Shown here: one piece after another, positions 3,901 through 25,417 of the stretch
Numbering within the stretch: the stretch's first letter is position 1
Layout of the letters: each line of letters begins with the position of its first letter
DNA from: a virus
Taxonomy: Duplodnaviria; Heunggongvirae; Uroviricota; Caudoviricetes
Virus record (IMG/VR): IMGVR_UViG_2571042636_000001
Location: 1 to 25,417 of that record
DNA length: 25,417 nt
Reading direction: 5' to 3' (one strand)
Program-made: the position numbers and the translations under genes
Notes under the pieces: model-generated
Told to the model about the DNA's origin: nothing
The model's input: only the letters and a program-made list of their open reading frames with translations
Databases searched by the model: none

Positions 3901-5457
3901 TTACCCCATTCCGTTCTGGCGTAATGTTGTTCCCGCAAATATTTTTGCCACCACAATACAGGGAAGAGGTCCATTTTTTGCGCTGGCTGTCTCCTCCAGT
4001 GTCGATGTATCCAGTGCATAGTAAGGTGTGTCTGGCATCACCACCCGTATTCTTACTGTTATTGTGCTCGCGGTAGCCGAGACAGAACCGACAAAATACT
4101 GAGCAGGAATGTATTGTCGGTTCTGATTCATGTAGAGATAACGTGGTTCGAGCAGAGCAGAAACAGCGATACCCACTCCTCCAACAGAGGATTTCCTGAC
4201 AGGATTAGATACATCCAGTTCCATAGCATAAATACGTGAACCATCCGGCAGACTTTTAAATGAATCCAGGTTGCTGTTCAGGGTACTTACAGCCACCTTT
4301 GGAATGACCGGATGAGCGCCATCAACAAATAAGTCTCCGGATTGTTGTCTGGACAGTAAATTGGTCGGCGCAGAAGAAATTTCGGGACCCTCTGGTGAAG
4401 TGGTGTCAAGAGATTCCATCTGTTTGCGAACAAAGGCCACACTGGCAATTTCATTACCTGCTGCATCATCCGGCGGTGTTGGTGTAGTCGGCTTTCCTGT
4501 GAATTCCGGGCTTTCCAGAGGAGCCCTTGTTTCAATAAGTTTCCTGAGTGCAACCTCGTTTACTTTCAGGTTTTCCCAGCCAGTCAGCCAGCCATTACCA
4601 GTGGACCAGTAACGGTTGTAATAAATATTGCCATTAATGCCGTAGAAAATAATGGCCTTTGCTGTATGTAACGGAAGTGGTGGGTTATGGTTTGCTTCCA
4701 GCCAGCGGATACTTATCACCCCCTGAAAAACAATGCCGGGAAGTACACCGTTTGCCCCATCCACATAATATTCTCCTGGCTCCACATATCTTGCCCATGC
4801 CAGAAAATCAGCTTCAGATTTAAACCTGACGGCCTCCCCCGGAATAAACCTGTGACCAAAACCAAATGCACCAGGTGTCGCCAGACGACCTTCAGAACGG
4901 TCACGGATACCATTTTGAGGTTCCATTGTGGCCGCTTTTTTTAGCCCGAGATTATCGCGTGATTCCTGTTGTGCCTCTTTGCCCTCATCAGCAATTTCTG
5001 ACAGGCGATTAGGTGCTTTCAGTGCTGTTTTCAGTTCCGGAGTGATATCCACCTGCCAGCTCTGCGGAGGGGCCGTGACTTGTGCAGACTGAGCAATGCC
5101 GCTGTATATAATCGTGAAATTACGAATAAGTGACTCGCCTGTTACTTTTTGTCGAACAGGCGTTTTTATTACGCCGCATAGTGTTCCGCTGGCCTGATGG
5201 ATGAGACAAATCCAGTCATAACTGAATGCACAGTCATCAGGAACAACCGCGCTACACACAATATTGTTCGGGCTTAACAGGCCGTAGGTCAGTTCATTCA
5301 CAGCATATGTAATTTTTTCTTCCGGAACGGTATTATCTTCGTGCGTTGGTTCCCGCTCCATCAGGGCAAAAATAATAGTGTCAGGGCGTGCAGGTAAATT
5401 ACTGGCTGTGCATTCAGCAACCCACTTTTCAAATGCTTTCGTCAACAATGCGCTCAT
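3901..5457 (-). CDS. Second tail fibre protein (shares the N-terminal domain of the first fibre, different distal part), 518 aa
   Basis: The first ~150 aa align by eye with fibre 1 (LPARPDTIIFAL vs GKPARPDTFVFAY; TYGLLSPNN vs QYGLLSPNA; FSYDWICLIHQASGTLCGVIKTPVRQK vs FEYNWIGLLNEESGVLCMIAHTPRQQK; WQVDIT vs WQIDFT). It has an internal collar-like motif (TGKPTTPTPPDDAAGNEIASVAFV), and the C-terminal half is unrelated to fibre 1. Confidence 0.7.
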   Translation of the reverse strand: MSALLTKAFEKWVAECTASNLPARPDTIIFALMEREPTHEDNTVPEEKITYAVNELTYGLLSPNNIVCSAVVPDDCAFSYDWICLIHQASGTLCGVIKTPVRQKVTGESLIRNFTIIYSGIAQSAQVTAPPQSWQVDITPELKTALKAPNRLSEIADEGKEAQQESRDNLGLKKAATMEPQNGIRDRSEGRLATPGAFGFGHRFIPGEAVRFKSEADFLAWARYVEPGEYYVDGANGVLPGIVFQGVISIRWLEANHNPPLPLHTAKAIIFYGINGNIYYNRYWSTGNGWLTGWENLKVNEVALRKLIETRAPLESPEFTGKPTTPTPPDDAAGNEIASVAFVRKQMESLDTTSPEGPEISSAPTNLLSRQQSGDLFVDGAHPVIPKVAVSTLNSNLDSFKSLPDGSRIYAMELDVSNPVRKSSVGGVGIAVSALLEPRYLYMNQNRQYIPAQYFVGSVSATASTITVRIRVVMPDTPYYALDTSTLEETASAKNGPLPCIVVAKIFAGTTLRQNGMG

Positions 5458-19535: not shown

Positions 19536-21323
19536 ATGGCTTATTCTGATGAAGTTATTGCCGCAGCAAAATCACTCTATCTAAAAAGGCACACCCCAAA
19601 AGAAATACAAAAGAAGCTCGGACTGAACAGCCCGCGAATTGTTTATTATTGGGCGACAAAGTTTGAGTGGTACACACAGCTTAATACTGAAGGCGTGGAG
19701 GATGTTATCGCCCGGCGTCTCGCTGTACTGGCGGAGCGTGACCATAAAACGCCGGAAGAACACGATGAACTCGATCGCCTGATTGGCCACCACGTCAAAC
19801 TGATGTCGGTCAGAAACAAGCACGCGGAGCGAATGGCTGAGATTGCACGAATGGGTGCGGACATTCCCCAGCCTGGTCGTTATGGAAAAGAAGAACGCGG
19901 AGAAAAAGGTGCAGGTAAGAAAGAGCGCCCCCGTAAAGCTAATGACGTTTCCGGGCTGACTGCTGAAAGTTTTGAGCCGTTTACCAAAAAACTGTTCGCT
20001 TATCAGTTGCACCTGCGTGAAAACAAATTCCGTCGTGTGCGCAACCTGCTTAAATCTCGCCAGATTGGGGCGACGTATTACTTCGCGTTTGAGGCGTTTG
20101 AAGATGCGGTATTAACCGGCGACACACAGATATTTTTATCGGCATCAAAACGTCAGGCCGAAGTGTTCCGCACCTATATCGTTAAGATTGCACAGACGGA
20201 ATTTGGCATTCCCATTAAAGGCAACCCGGTTAAGTTAAGTAATCTTGCTGAACTGTATTTTCTGGCGACCAACAGCAATACGGCGCAGTCAAACAGCGGC
20301 CACCTGTACATTGACGAATATCTGTGGATCCCCGCTTTTCGTCGCCTCAATGAAGTGGCGTCCGGTATGGCCACCCACTCGCACTGGCGCATTACTTACT
20401 TCTCCACGCCGTCATCCAAAACACACCAGGGCTACCCGTTCTGGTCTGGTGATGAATGGCGCAAAGGCGACCCGAAACGAAAAGGGGTTGAGTTCCCGTC
20501 CTTTGATGAACTGCGCGATGGCGGGCGCGAATGCCCGGATGGTCAGTGGCGCTATGTGGTGACAATGGAAGATGCCATTGCCGGCGGCTTTAACCTTGCC
20601 AACATTGACGAGCTGCGCGAGCGATATAACGAAACAGCATTCAATATGTTGTATATGTGCGTGTTTGTGGATGACAAAGAGAGCGTCTTTAAATTCGATG
20701 ACCTCGTGCGCTGTGGCGTTGATGTCAGTACGTGGGAGGATTTTCACCCGGAAGATGCCATGCCATTTGGAAACCGTGAAGTGTGGGGTGGCTTTGACCC
20801 TGCGCGCTCCGGCGATAACGCCACGTTTGTGGTGCTGGCACCGCCGCTGGTTGCGGTCGAACGATTCCGCGTGCTGGAAAAACACCACTGGCGCAGCATG
20901 TCATTCCAGTTTATGGCAGAGCGTATCCGCAGCATTAAGGCGCGCTATAACATGACGTTTATCGGCATTGATGTTACCGGGCTTGGCTATGGTGTCTTTG
21001 AGCTGGTTCAGGGATTTGCCCGCCGTGAAACAGTGGCCATTCATTACAGCGTTGAATCCAAAAACCGCCTGGTGATGAAGATGCTGGATCTGATTTACGC
21101 CAACCGTATTGAGTGGGATGAAGAAGCCACAGATATTCCGGCATCGTTCCTGGCCATTCGTCAGGAATCCACCAACAGTGGCAATAAAGTCACTTTCACC
21201 GCCGAACGTAGCGAAGAAACCGGGCACGCAGACATCTTCTTTGCCATTGCCCATGCCGCAAGTAATGAACCCCTGAACTATAAGCACAGGCGCAAATCAA
21301 CATGGATCCTGCCAGATGAGTAA
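19536..21323 (+). CDS. Terminase large (ATPase) subunit, P2 gpP-like, 595 aa
   Basis: ATG at 19536-19538; the size matches gpP and the gene is followed by, and overlaps, the portal gene, as in the P2 P-Q operon. Confidence 0.8.
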   Translation: MAYSDEVIAAAKSLYLKRHTPKEIQKKLGLNSPRIVYYWATKFEWYTQLNTEGVEDVIARRLAVLAERDHKTPEEHDELDRLIGHHVKLMSVRNKHAERMAEIARMGADIPQPGRYGKEERGEKGAGKKERPRKANDVSGLTAESFEPFTKKLFAYQLHLRENKFRRVRNLLKSRQIGATYYFAFEAFEDAVLTGDTQIFLSASKRQAEVFRTYIVKIAQTEFGIPIKGNPVKLSNLAELYFLATNSNTAQSNSGHLYIDEYLWIPAFRRLNEVASGMATHSHWRITYFSTPSSKTHQGYPFWSGDEWRKGDPKRKGVEFPSFDELRDGGRECPDGQWRYVVTMEDAIAGGFNLANIDELRERYNETAFNMLYMCVFVDDKESVFKFDDLVRCGVDVSTWEDFHPEDAMPFGNREVWGGFDPARSGDNATFVVLAPPLVAVERFRVLEKHHWRSMSFQFMAERIRSIKARYNMTFIGIDVTGLGYGVFELVQGFARRETVAIHYSVESKNRLVMKMLDLIYANRIEWDEEATDIPASFLAIRQESTNSGNKVTFTAERSEETGHADIFFAIAHAASNEPLNYKHRRKSTWILPDE

Positions 21324-22350
21324 AAAGAAGAAATATTCTGTGACACACGATGCCGGAGCAAAAAAAACGGCCGGCAAAATGACGTTTATTGAATTTGGTG
21401 ACCCCGAACCGGTTGCTGCATGGGGCTGTTATTACGGCTCGCTGTGGGATGGCTATAACGGCTGGTACACGCCGCCCATTGAACGCATGGATCTCGCCAT
21501 GTTGTCCAATATCGCACCGTATCACGGCGCGGTATTGCGTGCGCGCGTCAATATGATCATGCAGGGTTTTCGGGGCGGTGGTGGTATGACACACGCCGCC
21601 ATGGCGGCAGCGGTGACCAATCTGCTGATATTCGGGGATATGGGGCTGCTTAAAGTACGTAACGGCTTCGGTCGGGTGGTGCGTCTGCATACGTTGCCTT
21701 CTCTGTACCTGCGGCGTAACAACGAGGGAGGCACGGTGATTGTGCAGGCGGCACTGGAAGATCTCGTGTATCCGCCAGGCGAAGTGGTGTTCGTGGCAAT
21801 TTATGACCCGCAACAGCAGGTTTACGGTGTCCCGGATTATATCCACGGGATGGAATCCGCCATGCTGAATGTGGATGCCACCCGCTTTCGCCGCAAGTAT
21901 TACAAGAACGGCGCACACCTCGGTTATATCCTGTATTCCACTGACCCGGATATGACTCCCGAGCTCGAGGCGGAATTCCGTAAAAAGATAGAGGCGTCAA
22001 AAGGGGCGGGCAATTTTAAATCCATGTTTATCAATATACCTGGCGGAGACAAAGAAGGCGTTAAGGTGATCCCTATCGGGGATTCAGGTACAAAAGATGA
22101 GTTCCTGAATATAAAAACCATCAGTGCCCAGGATCAGCTCGTTGCGCACCGTTTTCCACCCGGACTTGCCGGCATCATTCCCGCAAATACGGCCGGGTTG
22201 GGTGACCCACTGAAATCCCGCGAAGCATATTACAGGGATGAGGTTATCCCGATGCGCCGCCTGATTATGGAGGGGATCAACAGCGATCCGGATATCAGAC
22301 GACTGGGGGAGGTGAAATTTATTCTTGATTTTGATGAACCCATGGAGTGA
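21316..22350 (+). CDS. Portal protein, P2 gpQ-like, 344 aa
   Basis: ATG at 21316-21318, overlapping the terminase stop. Length is the same as recalled for P2 gpQ, and the gene sits 3' of the large terminase. Confidence 0.8.
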   Translation: MSKKKKYSVTHDAGAKKTAGKMTFIEFGDPEPVAAWGCYYGSLWDGYNGWYTPPIERMDLAMLSNIAPYHGAVLRARVNMIMQGFRGGGGMTHAAMAAAVTNLLIFGDMGLLKVRNGFGRVVRLHTLPSLYLRRNNEGGTVIVQAALEDLVYPPGEVVFVAIYDPQQQVYGVPDYIHGMESAMLNVDATRFRRKYYKNGAHLGYILYSTDPDMTPELEAEFRKKIEASKGAGNFKSMFINIPGGDKEGVKVIPIGDSGTKDEFLNIKTISAQDQLVAHRFPPGLAGIIPANTAGLGDPLKSREAYYRDEVIPMRRLIMEGINSDPDIRRLGEVKFILDFDEPME

Positions 22351-22415
22351 TGTGCGGTATGGGGAAAGAGCGGGTAAAATCGGCGGCAGTAAAACGCTGT
22401 TCCGGGAGGTGGAAA

Positions 22416-22673
22416 ATGCGCAGACAGAAAGCGCGATGTCATTGCTGCGGTGCACATGCAGTGATTGAGAAAACAGCCTGGAAAACCGATCAGTTTGCTG
22501 ATGTGTATTACCGTTGCACTCGTCTCGAGTGCGGACATACCTGGGTGATGAACCTGACCTACTCGCACACACTGGTGCCCAGCGGGCTGGAGAATGGTGT
22601 GTTAAAGCTGTTGATTGAACGGATGCGCCCGGAAGAAAAACAAATGGCGCTGGAGTTGTTGCAGGCCGGATAG
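22416..22673 (+). CDS. ogr: Ogr/Delta-family zinc-finger late transcription activator, 85 aa
   Basis: ATG at 22416-22418 preceded by GGGAGGTGG. Cys pattern C-x2-C ... C-x4-C (RCHCCGAHA ... YYRCTRLECGHTW ... TYSHTLVPSG) aligns by eye with Ogr of P2 and B of phage 186. An in-frame GTG at 22347 is a possible alternative start. Confidence 0.65.
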   Translation: MRRQKARCHCCGAHAVIEKTAWKTDQFADVYYRCTRLECGHTWVMNLTYSHTLVPSGLENGVLKLLIERMRPEEKQMALELLQAG

Positions 22674-22695
22674 CTGACGCGCTTCGCTTGTCCAA

Positions 22696-22745
22696 CCCGG
22701 AACGGGCGCACAAAGAATTTGCGCACCCGTTCCGGGTTTTCTTAT
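22696..22745 (+). terminator. Intrinsic terminator after ogr (11-bp GC-rich stem, T-tract)
   Basis: CCCGGAACGGG (22696-22706) pairs with CCCGTTCCGGG (22726-22736), followed by TTTTCTTATTC. Confidence 0.55.
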
Positions 22746-22794
22746 TCAACGGCAGACAGCTGATAATCTGCGTCTTCCTATGGGCTGGGCAGCT

Positions 22795-23001
22795 CTAAAT
22801 ACGCTTCACAATACCCACAAGATTGCCAGGTGACAGTTCTGCTGTGCGTTTAATATCGTCCACTATGTACGATGCATGTTCACGGTTAATCGCATAGATA
22901 TAAAATGAGTATTTCCGTTCATCTGCCATAAAGTCGACAGAAAATAATTTCCATGTACGCCCCTCGACTTCAACCTGTAACGGCATATTTATTCCGCTCA
23001 C
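22795..23001 (-). CDS. Hypothetical small protein, 68 aa (63 aa from the internal ATG)
   Basis: GTG at complement of 22999-23001 with AGGAG 7 nt upstream. Last gene of the minus-strand unit, convergent with ogr. No family recognised. Confidence 0.45.
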   Translation of the reverse strand: MSGINMPLQVEVEGRTWKLFSVDFMADERKYSFYIYAINREHASYIVDDIKRTAELSPGNLVGIVKRI

Positions 23002-23027
23002 GCATAGTCTCCTTTTGAAAATTCTAA

Positions 23028-23405
23028 TTAAATATTTTCGTTACGAAGCATGGCTGCGCGGCAGGCGTTCCAGCCTGTAGCGTATGCAGCCGCTTTGCTG
23101 CTGCCTTCAACTGGCGCATCCTGCCAATACATTTCATCCGGCACTACCGGTGCTGGCAGCTCGCGATACAGCGGGATTACACGACGCGAGTCTGCGTATT
23201 TATCTGGCGGACACTGAAATATCTCACCAAAACCATACTCCCTGACATCTTGCAGTTCCTCGTCATCAGTCCATGCCACCGGTTCTGCTTCCAGCGAGGC
23301 TAACGCTATTTCATAAGCCCGGCGCTCAATATTGTCTCGCACGTCCAGGCTGCCTATGCGCTCTTTGATTTCTTTAATCAGTTCTTTGTCGGTGAAAGTT
23401 GTCAT
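23028..23405 (-). CDS. Hypothetical acidic protein, 125 aa
   Basis: ATG at complement of 23403-23405 with an AAGGA ribosome-binding site. No family recognised. Confidence 0.5.
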   Translation of the reverse strand: MTTFTDKELIKEIKERIGSLDVRDNIERRAYEIALASLEAEPVAWTDDEELQDVREYGFGEIFQCPPDKYADSRRVIPLYRELPAPVVPDEMYWQDAPVEGSSKAAAYATGWNACRAAMLRNENI

Positions 23406-23470
23406 GTGTTAGTCCTTATTCTGCTGTGCTTTCAACTGATGAGGGGAACAAAATCGTTTTAGTGCGTTGG

Positions 23471-23494
23471 CATCAGGGCGGATGCGCCCTGATG
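23471..23494. promoter_or_regulatory. Perfect 10-bp inverted repeat (CATCAGGGCG-n4-CGCCCTGATG) just 3' of parR
   Basis: Read directly from the sequence; it lies between the parR stop and the start of the downstream 125-aa gene. Could be an attenuator/terminator hairpin or a protein-binding operator. Confidence 0.4.
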
Positions 23495-23499
23495 TTGTG

Positions 23500-23811
23500 T
23501 TATTCGGGAAATAACGCCCGGATATTCCCGGCCATCTGGCTGGTTATCTGTGTGGTTGGCGTTGGAGGTGTCGCAGGGCGTTCTGCTCTGGTTTGTGTCA
23601 CTGATAACGCTTCATCATCAGCCCATGCAGCCAGTCGGTAAGCCTCTGCCGGATTCATTTTCAGAAGTGCCAGCCCGGCCAGAAAAGCCACGCGTTGGCC
23701 GCTTTTGCGGGCTTCTGGTGTAAGGCTGTCCAGCCAGGCGCATGCTTCGCCTTCGTTCTTGACGGCGGCGGGCTTCAGATAGAAACTTATCCGTCTGGTT
23801 GGTGTCGTCAT
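23500..23811 (-). CDS. parR: ParR (StbB) centromere-binding adaptor of a type II partition system, 103 aa
   Basis: ATG at complement of 23809-23811, overlapping the end of parM. Sequence RRISFYLKPAAVKNEGEACAWLDSLTPEARKSGQRVAFLAGLALLKMNPAEAY aligns by eye with plasmid R1 ParR as recalled from memory. The longer 148-aa ORF in the track is an upstream run-on. Confidence 0.8.
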   Translation of the reverse strand: MTTPTRRISFYLKPAAVKNEGEACAWLDSLTPEARKSGQRVAFLAGLALLKMNPAEAYRLAAWADDEALSVTQTRAERPATPPTPTTQITSQMAGNIRALFPE

Positions 23812-23815
23812 TGGT

Positions 23816-24775
23816 TTACTCCTTGTCCATTGCGTACAGCCCATTAACCAGAGCAAACTGTGGCACCCCGTCCGCGATGAAAGTCGCATTAACTCCGCAG
23901 GCTTCGCGGATAGCGGGTGCCACAATCTCCGCCCCGCCACCGACAACCATCACCCGCCCGTAACCCGAAAAACCCGCCAGCGCGCGGATCACGCGTTGTT
24001 TCAGTGTCTCTTCCTTTTCACGAATAACCGCCATCAGGCTGTCGTAATGCGCGCCATTGTGGATGTGCTGGCGCAGCCAGGCTTCATCATGGCGATGTTC
24101 AATAATGGTATTAGCGATATGGTGACTGGTGCGCATACCGTTGGTGGCCATCACCGACAGCACGGCATCGGCCATCAGGGAAACGCCTACGTGTGGATCG
24201 CAAAACACCTGGCTGATACCTGCCAGTTGCCCCTGAACCTTTGCCACATCCAGCGTGGTTCCGCCTAAATCAACAATAAGCAGGGATTCAAACGGACTCA
24301 TATCAGCCAGTGCTTTAAAGCCAGCCGGAATGGATTCAGGCATAACCCGCACGTTACGGATAGTGAATGCCTCACCGTTCTGGTACTCCACCGGGCGCAT
24401 AACGTTCGCTTTTTTGCGGTTGATGTTGGCCATATCCGGCTGTGCGTTTGTATCGAAATACTCGCTCAGTGGCAGGGTGACAACCACATCCACCTCCTGT
24501 GGTGTGATGCCTGATTTGACCAGCGCGTGGTGAATGGCGATTACATTCACATCGCTGTACTGGTATTGCGTGTCGGTCGTCTGGATAAAGCGATCGCTGA
24601 CCGGATCAAAACCATAGCGCACGCCATCAAGCATGTAGTTCGCAGGCTGCGAGCCACCGAACGGCGCAGACCATTCCGACTTGAAGCTGTTCGGGCTGAT
24701 GGCGTTGCGGCATTCGCCGTTCTCAGTCCATGCCAGCTTGATGTTGGTGGAGCCGTCGTCGATACAAATTTTCAT
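23816..24775 (-). CDS. parM: ParM (StbA) actin-like segregation ATPase, 319 aa
   Basis: ATG at complement of 24773-24775 with an AAGGAAAA ribosome-binding site. The N-terminus MKICIDDGSTNIKLAW, and ISPNSFK, YSDVNVIAIHHAL, VMPESIPAG, LIVDLGGTTLD, FSGY..VMVVGGGAEI and LVNGLY match the actin-fold phosphate and adenosine motifs of plasmid R1 ParM. Confidence 0.9.
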   Translation of the reverse strand: MKICIDDGSTNIKLAWTENGECRNAISPNSFKSEWSAPFGGSQPANYMLDGVRYGFDPVSDRFIQTTDTQYQYSDVNVIAIHHALVKSGITPQEVDVVVTLPLSEYFDTNAQPDMANINRKKANVMRPVEYQNGEAFTIRNVRVMPESIPAGFKALADMSPFESLLIVDLGGTTLDVAKVQGQLAGISQVFCDPHVGVSLMADAVLSVMATNGMRTSHHIANTIIEHRHDEAWLRQHIHNGAHYDSLMAVIREKEETLKQRVIRALAGFSGYGRVMVVGGGAEIVAPAIREACGVNATFIADGVPQFALVNGLYAMDKE

Positions 24776-24806
24776 GTCGCTTTTCCTTATGTTGGTTAAT
24801 TAACCG

Positions 24807-24917
24807 TTTACGGGATTTTTAAATCCCGCTTTCGCCTGTTTTGTGCGCGCTTCATATATCGCGGCGCGTTTTTTGCTCATTTACGGGATTTGTGAATCCC
24901 GTTTTTGTCTGTTTTTT
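24807..24917. repeat. parC-like centromere/promoter region: two ~39-bp direct repeats, each with a CGGGATTT..AAATCCCG inverted-repeat core
   Basis: Repeat 1 is about 24807-24845 (tttacgggatttttaaatcccgctttcgcctgttttgtg) and repeat 2 about 24879-24917 (tttacgggatttgtgaatcccgtttttgtctgttttttg). They flank a TATAT-containing spacer immediately upstream of parM. Confidence 0.65.
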
Positions 24918-25417
24918 GTTTCCACTGGTCAGGCCACCCCGCAGCAGGTCTGCTTTGCGGCGGGCGCGTTCAGTGGTTTCACTGATTCTCTGTGCGTGCT
25001 CTGCGTCGCGGATGGCGCGCAGCATGTCAGAAAGCACGGTAACGGGTGTTTTCATGGTGTTCTGGTCCTGCTGAAGAGCGGATGCCAGGCGTGCGGCGGC
25101 TTCAGGGGCTGATGCCCCCAGCTGTGCCAGATAGCTGGCGACCGGGTTATGGCGGATCTCCGTGCTGCTTACGCCATGATTACGGCTCAGGCGCTGCCAG
25201 AGCTGCGTGATTCGGCTGTCCGGGCGGGTATCCGGTTTGCGTACAATTTCAAATCCCTGCGGTGCAATGATGCTGCCGTCAACGTACAGACTGCCGCCCC
25301 GTAACAGGTGCTGCATCTGCTGTTCACCGATATGCAGGCCGAGAGATTCAGCAGACTCCCGCCATTCTTTAGCGAGTAATTCGTGGTTATCAGGCAAAGG
25401 CCGCTGCTGTTTGCGGC
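24852..25417 (-). CDS. Hypothetical protein, C-terminal part (ORF open to the right edge); possibly replication-associated
   Basis: The reading frame stays open upstream of the TTG shown as start in the ORF track, so the 5' end is outside the window. Its 3' end overlaps the parC repeats. No family confidently recognised. Confidence 0.35.
   Translation of the reverse strand, partial: RKQQRPLPDNHELLAKEWRESAESLGLHIGEQQMQHLLRGGSLYVDGSIIAPQGFEIVRKPDTRPDSRITQLWQRLSRNHGVSSTEIRHNPVASYLAQLGASAPEAAARLASALQQDQNTMKTPVTVLSDMLRAIRDAEHAQRISETTERARRKADLLRGGLTSGNKKQTKTGFTNPVNEQKTRRDI

Follow-up and report, generated by a model that had tools for sequence, protein, structure and literature searches.

A lambdoid 'ea' fragment as apparent cargo of the gpA-gpQ hotspot in a P88-like prophage of Escherichia coli

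The two small genes that lie between parR and ogr in the prophage analysed here make up a cassette that our comparisons show, as far as DNA relationships can tell, to be a ~0.65 kb lambdoid 'ea' fragment that recombined into the gpA-gpQ cargo hotspot of a P88-like phage. The first gene encodes a 125-aa protein which alignments show to be one of many in-frame shuffled Ea-type variants with a 'beads-on-a-string' organisation, and the second encodes a 68-aa protein which, on the distribution of its homologues and the predicted fold, is evidently an autonomous, single-domain beta3-alpha protein. The window, by which we mean the whole 25,417-nucleotide stretch of IMG/VR record IMGVR_UViG_2571042636_000001, is a P88-like (Xuanwuvirus, P2-like) E. 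coli prophage. The function that we favour for the cassette, with a probability of roughly one half, is a service to the phage during its lytic phase, in which the 68-aa protein would, on its own, bind or inhibit a host factor or an immune protein.

The parR and parM DNA of the window is 95-97% identical to that of Escherichia phage P88 and of other Xuanwuvirus (Peduoviridae) genomes, and the cassette is absent from P88 and from the other Xuanwuvirus genomes matched in this way. One E. coli assembly contig is 100% identical to the window over positions 22301-24000. The genes and signals surrounding the cassette are listed in Table 1. Both ORFs lie where the sequence-only reading had put them, one encoding an acidic protein of 125 aa and the other a protein of 68 aa; each has a low dN/dS and a Shine-Dalgarno sequence (AAGGA 8 nt ahead of the ATG of the 125-aa gene, AAGGAG 7 nt ahead of the GTG of the 68-aa gene), and the gene map agrees with that reading in placing them on the same strand as parMR and convergent with ogr and the portal gene. 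A longer 'parR' ORF of 148 aa (23500-23946), which would overlap parM by 131 nt, was rejected as an artefact of an upstream TTG start; a protein of 103 aa is called in all relatives. Near parM there is also a 21-nt repeat containing a palindrome, with two copies 73 bp apart at 24807-24827 (TTTACGGGATTTTTAAATCCC) and 24880-24900 (TTTACGGGATTTGTGAATCCC), located just upstream of parM and with the second copy within the end of the gpA-like gene. These repeats are candidate ParR-binding (parC) sites.

Table 1. Features of the cassette and of the DNA on either side of it, with positions numbered along the window
Feature	Position (nt)	Strand	Evidence and remarks
Portal gene	21316-22350		Convergent with the cassette; the large terminase gene is also on that side
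ogr/Delta-type zinc-finger activator gene, 85 aa	22416-22673	+	Ogr_Delta, E 1e-12; convergent downstream flank
Stem-loop, 21-nt arms, 90% complementary	22694-22738		Between convergent ogr and 68-aa gene; z -5.8; U-tract on +
68-aa gene, GTG start, phrog_10509	22795-23001	-	beta1-beta2-beta3-alpha; conserved motif SFYIYAINREHASY
Lambdoid exo-xis/'ea'-derived DNA block	22806-~23406		86-95% nt identity to L015-L024
26-nt spacer between the two genes	23002-23027	-	Holds AAGGAG of the 68-aa gene; identical in 10/10 lambdoid loci
125-aa acidic mosaic Ea-type gene, ATG start	23028-23405	-	ORF; PHROG matches
Linker and C-terminal helix ending ...GWNACRAAMLRNENI (aa 81-125)	23028-23165		Part of the 125-aa protein
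Small alpha/beta middle module (aa 43-80)	23166-23279		Part of the 125-aa protein
N-terminal helical hairpin module (aa 1-42)	23280-23405		Part of the 125-aa protein
10-bp GC-rich hairpin	23471-23494	-	Just past the parR stop; last conserved P88-backbone element before the cargo
parR, 103 aa	23500-23811	-	Plasmid_stab_B, E 6e-24; upstream flank of the slot
parM	23816-24775	-	StbA_N, E 3e-82; upstream flank of the slot
gpA-type replication endonuclease gene, C-terminus	24852-25397		phrog_6857/91; further upstream of parM

The interval between gpA and gpQ is the cos-proximal hotspot of P2-like prophages, for which 1,650 arrangements have been described among 18,150 loci (Rousset et al. 2022, PMC9122126), and a 2026 preprint (10.64898/2026.02.27.708500) confirms this hotspot. 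With the order gpA, parM, parR, cassette, ogr, portal, the cassette occupies the gpA-to-gpQ position. It had been suggested from the letters alone that this is a variable cargo hotspot of P2-like phages and that a comparison of related phages would reveal whether the slot varies; the suggestion holds up in that comparison. We fetched 80 IMG/VR loci with ParM, and the 64 of these P88-like loci that have a complete parR-to-portal slot display 35 distinct arrangements, with slot lengths from 994 to 4175 bp. The genes that follow parR differ among P88, P88_4B11, Shae_phiSM, STEC316, STEC2018-607 and 266917_2. Recognised defence systems are present in the same slot of some relatives, namely IetA/IetS (in L102), AbiL (L044), an RmrA-like gene accompanied by a second gene (L105), PDC-M04A (L074), and PDC-M11A together with an ASCH-like gene (L095), and sequence inspection identifies Doc/Phd-like modules in some P88-like slots, such as the pair in L114. 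Small co-oriented genes bearing Ea-type signatures, which we counted as the ClpX-type zinc-finger protein, Ea22-like N-termini, ASLEAEP-type linkers and CRAAML-type ends, are found in 35 of the 64 slots. The presence of both lambdoid-type Ea genes and defence systems means that the slot serves as a defence hotspot and also extends the early gene string.

The portal-proximal side of the slot also merits description. A conserved element, covered only by spurious-looking ORFs, is present there in 58 of the 64 P88-like slots (L043-L122); this element is possibly the cos/packaging region. The corresponding part of the window, 22351-22794, does not have this element. Six loci without it carry ogr and a terminator hairpin at that place, as the window does, and two others (L090 and L092) have both ogr and the element. 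The 19-mer of P2 cos was searched for in the window and is absent, and an Rfam scan of 22300-24000 returned no match. In L007-L014, which are otherwise 96-99% identical to the window, approximately 218 extra bases (4733-4950) are inserted immediately after the ogr stop (22673), ahead of position 22674, and inspection of this insert for ORFs found none that was convincing.

The source of the cassette can be read from the loci that match it. Ten loci (L015-L024) align to positions 22806-23406 of the window, and in one of these, L024, the match extends to 23459. In the loci that have diagnostic flanks (e.g. L015 and L017), the genes are situated between recombination genes (Rad52/RecT, SSB, Anti-RecBCD_p2) and xis/int, that is, in the early-left accessory ('ea', exo-xis) region of lambdoid/P22-like prophages. 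On one side of the block the P88-type backbone, here common to P88, resumes at or beyond 23458-23471, and on the other side it resumes at or below 22788 with DNA common to STEC316-type prophages, whose cargo differs. The right-hand junction falls within the final codons of the 68-aa gene, where the lambdoid copies read ...GIVSSQDKE and all of the P88-slot copies read ...GIVKRI. This common end of the P88-slot copies points to one capture event, followed by spread. The G+C content of the 68-aa gene is 41.5%, compared with 52.7% for the whole window. The block would have entered at the far end of the replication-partition genes (gpA-parM-parR), in the orientation of that gene string.

A location at the end of this gene string also bears on how the cassette might be transcribed. 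A crude consensus search found no sigma70-like promoter on the minus strand of 22300-24900, and the two sigma70-like matches on the plus strand within the 68-aa gene are at the level expected by chance. Since no promoter of its own was found for the cassette, the simplest model is that it is probably expressed by read-through together with the early/partition genes (gpA-parMR). The hairpin that follows the parR stop has no U-tract on the minus strand. The stem-loop on the other side of the cassette is the predicted ogr terminator and is likely to act as a transcription barrier for the cassette as well.

The 125-aa protein (pI 4.48, with 25 D+E and 15 K+R residues) is unchanged on 19 contigs and matches phrog_5117 over residues 1-122 (E 8e-35), as well as phrog_660 and phrog_60. 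It has 2973 homologues, counted as clusters, some of which carry PF13935 (Ead_Ea22) or PF04448 (DUF551); the best 120 of these 2973 come nearly all from E. coli and its close relatives, and some are named Eaa, ead/Ea22-like or DUF551. The window protein carries neither the Ead_Ea22 nor the DUF551 signature, its sole Pfam match being HHH_8 at an E value of 0.11, and an NCBIfam scan gave no match. The sequence-only reading had recognised no structural, lysis or regulatory family for either protein, which agrees with Pfam, NCBIfam and PADLOC but is not quite right for the 125-aa protein, since it belongs to a well-populated Ea-type mosaic family. In the AlphaFold2 (AF2) model (pLDDT 81, pTM 0.43) the individual modules are predicted with confidence and are not packed together. 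Alignments place the in-frame shuffling of modules at two conserved linkers, ASLEAEPVA(W) and (P)LYxxPPAPVVP(D/E)E. In lambdoid loci the N- and C-modules of the window protein (the latter ending ...GWNACRAAMLRNENI) recur around either of two middle modules, or around both of them in tandem, and the alternative C-module seen in such loci retains the last residues only. Other combinations of modules are found in P88-like prophages: a 240-aa protein in E2855, a 148-aa protein in STEC2018-607 and a pseudogene in VCSW5. When compared with a relative that has all three modules, the 125-aa gene has a dN/dS of 0.14.

Two further observations concern this mosaic family. The linkers look like recombination joints that are common to lambdoid and P88-like phages (the window, L015-L024, L004 and L034). 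A homologue of the mosaic protein in E. coli E189 (L036 3723-4100, WP_411908229.1) is annotated as 'valyl-tRNA synthetase' and appears to be misannotated; it has the same N- and C-modules as the window protein, with 59 of 126 aligned positions in common, and the gene that directly follows is a 71-aa copy of the small one.

The derivation of the DNA from the exo-xis region, and the Ead_Ea22 signature in relatives of the 125-aa protein, raise the question of whether the genes are modulators of the lysis-lysogeny choice or of induction, like lambda Ea22 and other exo-xis genes. Ea22 is reported to be pro-lysogenic and mosaic (PMC7093339, PMC10834534). We regard this explanation as rather improbable, because the window protein has no Pfam match to Ead_Ea22 or DUF551 and has only the linker and the N- and C-modules in common with such proteins, and because the 68-aa family is also present in virulent phages, which make no lysogeny decision.

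The 68-aa protein is neutral (pI 6.76, with nine acidic and nine basic residues) and matches phrog_10509 with an E value of 3.9e-26, residues 4-64 aligning to profile positions 1-62 of 64. This family is a small one: a profile search gives 63 clusters (90% identity), and HMMER, run exhaustively, gives 127 representatives (50% identity); a giant CBM-repeat protein (P0257) among the profile matches was discarded as a spurious repeat match. The family core SF.IYA..REHA is near-invariant and the C-terminal segment varies. Homologues of 63-65% identity keep the MSGINM with which the long form begins, so we prefer the GTG start over the internal ATG. In the AF2 model (pLDDT 91) the strands b1, b2 and b3 are followed by an alpha helix and then by a C-terminal tail. 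The gene is evidently under strong purifying selection, with a dN/dS of 0.05 against the lambdoid copies and of 0.12 against a 76%-identical copy; beyond the latter, synonymous sites are saturated and the ORF is still intact.

Pfam and NCBIfam scans gave no match for the 68-aa protein. The remote-homology searches that had been proposed for both proteins yielded no identification: profile searches of all PDB sequences found no match for either one, and a Foldseek search of the 68-aa model against BFVD returned unnamed phage proteins only, with no convincing fold match. No paper containing the peptide motifs turned up in a full-text literature search, nor do they occur in the supplements to two phage accessory-gene screens. 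One specific possibility, that the 68-aa protein inhibits host RNA polymerase in the manner of T7 Gp2, is very unlikely in the light of the direct comparisons. The hhalign probability was 0.1% (E 0.54), a PDB search with the family profile produced no match to Gp2, the 68-aa protein is neutral, and a C-terminal Arg pair is not conserved in its family.

Whether the two genes belong together can be judged from the loci in which each of them is found. The CRAAMLRNENI end of the upstream protein, the identical 26-nt spacer and the 68-aa gene are found together in all ten of the close lambdoid loci, and a CRAAML-type gene is upstream of the 68-aa homologue in none of the nine distant loci. The loss of the pairing with distance argues for a recent linkage and not for a conserved two-gene system. 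The families are also of different size, with ~3000 clusters for the 125-aa protein and ~60-130 for the 68-aa protein. Homologues of the latter are encoded between the lysis genes and the terminase in Enterobacter lambdoid prophages, and phage SaltyDalty has one at this lysis-proximal site too. In Klebsiella Mu-like prophages they follow the major capsid gene, in virulent Kagunavirus they are between the lysin and the small terminase, and in the virulent Ackermannviridae phage IME250 (Taipeivirus) the homologue is beside nucleotide-metabolism genes. The 68-aa domain also occurs in fusions, joined to Ea22-like coiled coils, to an N-module resembling the one in the 125-aa protein or, in a single case, to a Lar restriction-alleviation domain (P0285, with 31.4 bits against a Pfam threshold of 28.6). 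It behaves as a further module of the same shuffled pool.

In one of the Enterobacter lambdoid prophages (L028 2343-2624), the gene directly upstream of a 64-aa homologue encodes an Acb2_Tad1_hairpin protein (PF24729), which we take to be of the anti-CBASS/anti-Thoeris sponge type. Unrelated small genes are present at this place in sister loci, which hints at an islet of anti-defence or accessory genes in the interval that separates the lysis genes from the terminase.

It had been noted, in the sequence-only reading, that small accessory pairs in such positions are often toxin-antitoxin, defence or anti-defence modules. Our results do not bear out a functional pair, given that the 68-aa family is without this partner in the distant loci and that PADLOC recognised neither protein. 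The version of this idea in which the acidic 125-aa protein is the antitoxin and the 68-aa protein the toxin of a type II system has some attraction, in that the genes are small, adjacent and co-oriented, are 26 nt apart and include one with an acidic product, and in that Doc/Phd-like modules were found by inspection in the same slot of relatives. It is nonetheless the least probable of the explanations that we have considered. Even close copies have the upstream partner in freely shuffled forms, the distant loci do not have it, and the 68-aa gene is found alone in virulent phages. No toxin or antitoxin domain was detected in Pfam, NCBIfam, PADLOC or the PDB sequences, and no autoregulated promoter was found.

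The cassette is a rare cargo. At a nucleotide identity of >=95% the 68-aa gene is present in 6 of 5426 complete E. coli genomes; in five of these it is in P88-like slots with three different upstream arrangements, and in the sixth it is in a prophage with yfdP, yfdQ and yfdR, which we take to be CPS-53-like. It was found in none of the 64 IMG/VR P88-like slots. Among draft assemblies, its 90% cluster is represented on a few hundred contigs. In P88-like slots the gene is preceded by four or more different arrangements of upstream DNA, and the 68-aa ORF is intact in every copy seen. The low frequency, together with the decay of the upstream gene to a pseudogene in VCSW5, would be compatible with the block being hitch-hiking DNA that does nothing for this phage and became fixed through recombination, either illegitimate or mediated by linkers. 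This explanation is highly improbable; the intact ORF of the 68-aa gene and the strong purifying selection on it speak against it, as do its retention behind these several upstream arrangements and the number of contigs that carry its cluster.

Annotation of this gene is inconsistent. Five complete E. coli genomes have an intact 68-aa gene for which there is no RefSeq/PGAP CDS, at L034 3508-3714 (E2855), L123, L124, L035 (VCSW5) and L004 3008-3214 (STEC2018-607), and elsewhere gene callers are divided between a 63-aa version starting at ATG and the 68-aa version starting at GTG.

With regard to function, the service in lytic growth that we favour would involve the binding of host proteins by both products. 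The 68-aa protein, small and acting alone, would inhibit a host factor or an immune protein stoichiometrically, in host takeover or counter-defence. Four lines of evidence lead to this reading: the presence of the 68-aa family in virulent phages, the varied accessory-slot positions in which it is found, the early-region origin of the DNA, and two associations of an anti-defence type. Of these two associations, the Acb2/Tad1 neighbour was seen in one locus and the Lar fusion in one protein. It also counts against the favoured reading that the parMR promoter may be active in lysogens, in which case the cassette would be expressed from the prophage. More tentatively, the 68-aa protein might belong to a widespread and so far unrecognised type of single-protein inhibitor that temperate and virulent enterobacterial phages alike use against an immune or housekeeping factor of the host, with the shuffled Ea-type protein as its modular partner or as a decoy in the same arms race, and part of what is called a 'defence hotspot' might be a counter-defence/early-accessory region common with lambdoid phages.

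The main rival, by virtue of the hotspot position, is that the cassette provides prophage defence or superinfection exclusion in the lysogen, like old/tin of P2. The gpA-gpQ hotspot (PMC9122126) in which the cassette is located holds IetAS, AbiL, RmrA-like, PDC-M04A and PDC-M11A systems in relatives. In the same vein, 6 of 8 P4 hotspot loci of unknown function gave protection when they were tested, and an antiviral role was predicted for 15-32% of unknown P2 hotspot proteins (preprint 10.64898/2026.02.27.708500). Exclusion genes are also found in lambdoid early-left regions and in some virulent phages, so that the occurrence of the 68-aa family in virulent phages is compatible with defence. 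However, no family in PADLOC-DB matched either protein at E <= 1, and the cassette has a lambdoid early-left accessory origin, is co-oriented with the early genes and has no promoter of its own that we could find. The presence of the 68-aa family in strictly virulent phages and in late/lysis-proximal slots, and the anti-defence-type neighbour in L028, likewise argue against defence, and we consider it unlikely.

These results correct the attractive reading of the genes as a toxin-antitoxin or defence pair and locate the origin of the DNA. The gpA-gpQ hotspot itself has already been published, and the cassette is an uncharacterised accessory cargo within it, whose origin is now explained and which is unlikely to be a two-gene system. 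The parR-to-portal slot of P88-like phages combines a defence hotspot with an early-gene extension that uses the same shuffled Ea-type pool as the lambdoid phages. Screens for counter-defence or host-takeover proteins could reasonably include the 68-aa family, which is small, well folded in prediction, under strong purifying selection, present in unrelated temperate and virulent phages, and routinely missed in annotation. Its interest would rise if it were true that the family is a new counter-defence protein.

Compared with known cargo of the gpA-gpQ hotspot, such as the old/tin locus (PMC9122126), the cassette is in the same place, between the replication endonuclease gene (here followed by parMR) and the portal gene, where contents are variable; it differs in having no recognisable defence gene, in being co-oriented with the early genes and in being a lambdoid import. 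About half of the P88-like slots (35/64) contain Ea-type genes instead of, or besides, defence systems. With the exo-xis proteins of lambda and Stx phages (Ea22, PF13935; DUF551, PF04448), the 125-aa protein has in common the N-module, the linkers and the C-module. Lambda Ea22 has 182 aa, and the 125-aa protein is much shorter, without the long coiled coil and without the Pfam signatures; the pro-lysogenic activity is reported for Ea22. Ea22 variants are acidic and modular (PMC10834534), as is the 125-aa protein. The 68-aa protein has the same length and the same core as the uncharacterised small phage proteins of phrog_10509, and differs from them in its P88-slot-specific GIVKRI end. T7 Gp2 binds the beta' jaw through an acidic surface strip and conserved C-terminal arginines, whereas the 68-aa protein has no significant sequence or profile similarity to Gp2, a neutral charge and no conserved C-terminal Arg pair. 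The Acb2/Tad1 sponges and Lar/Ral, to which it has no homology, resemble it in being small, encoded by a single gene and scattered in the accessory slots of unrelated phages.
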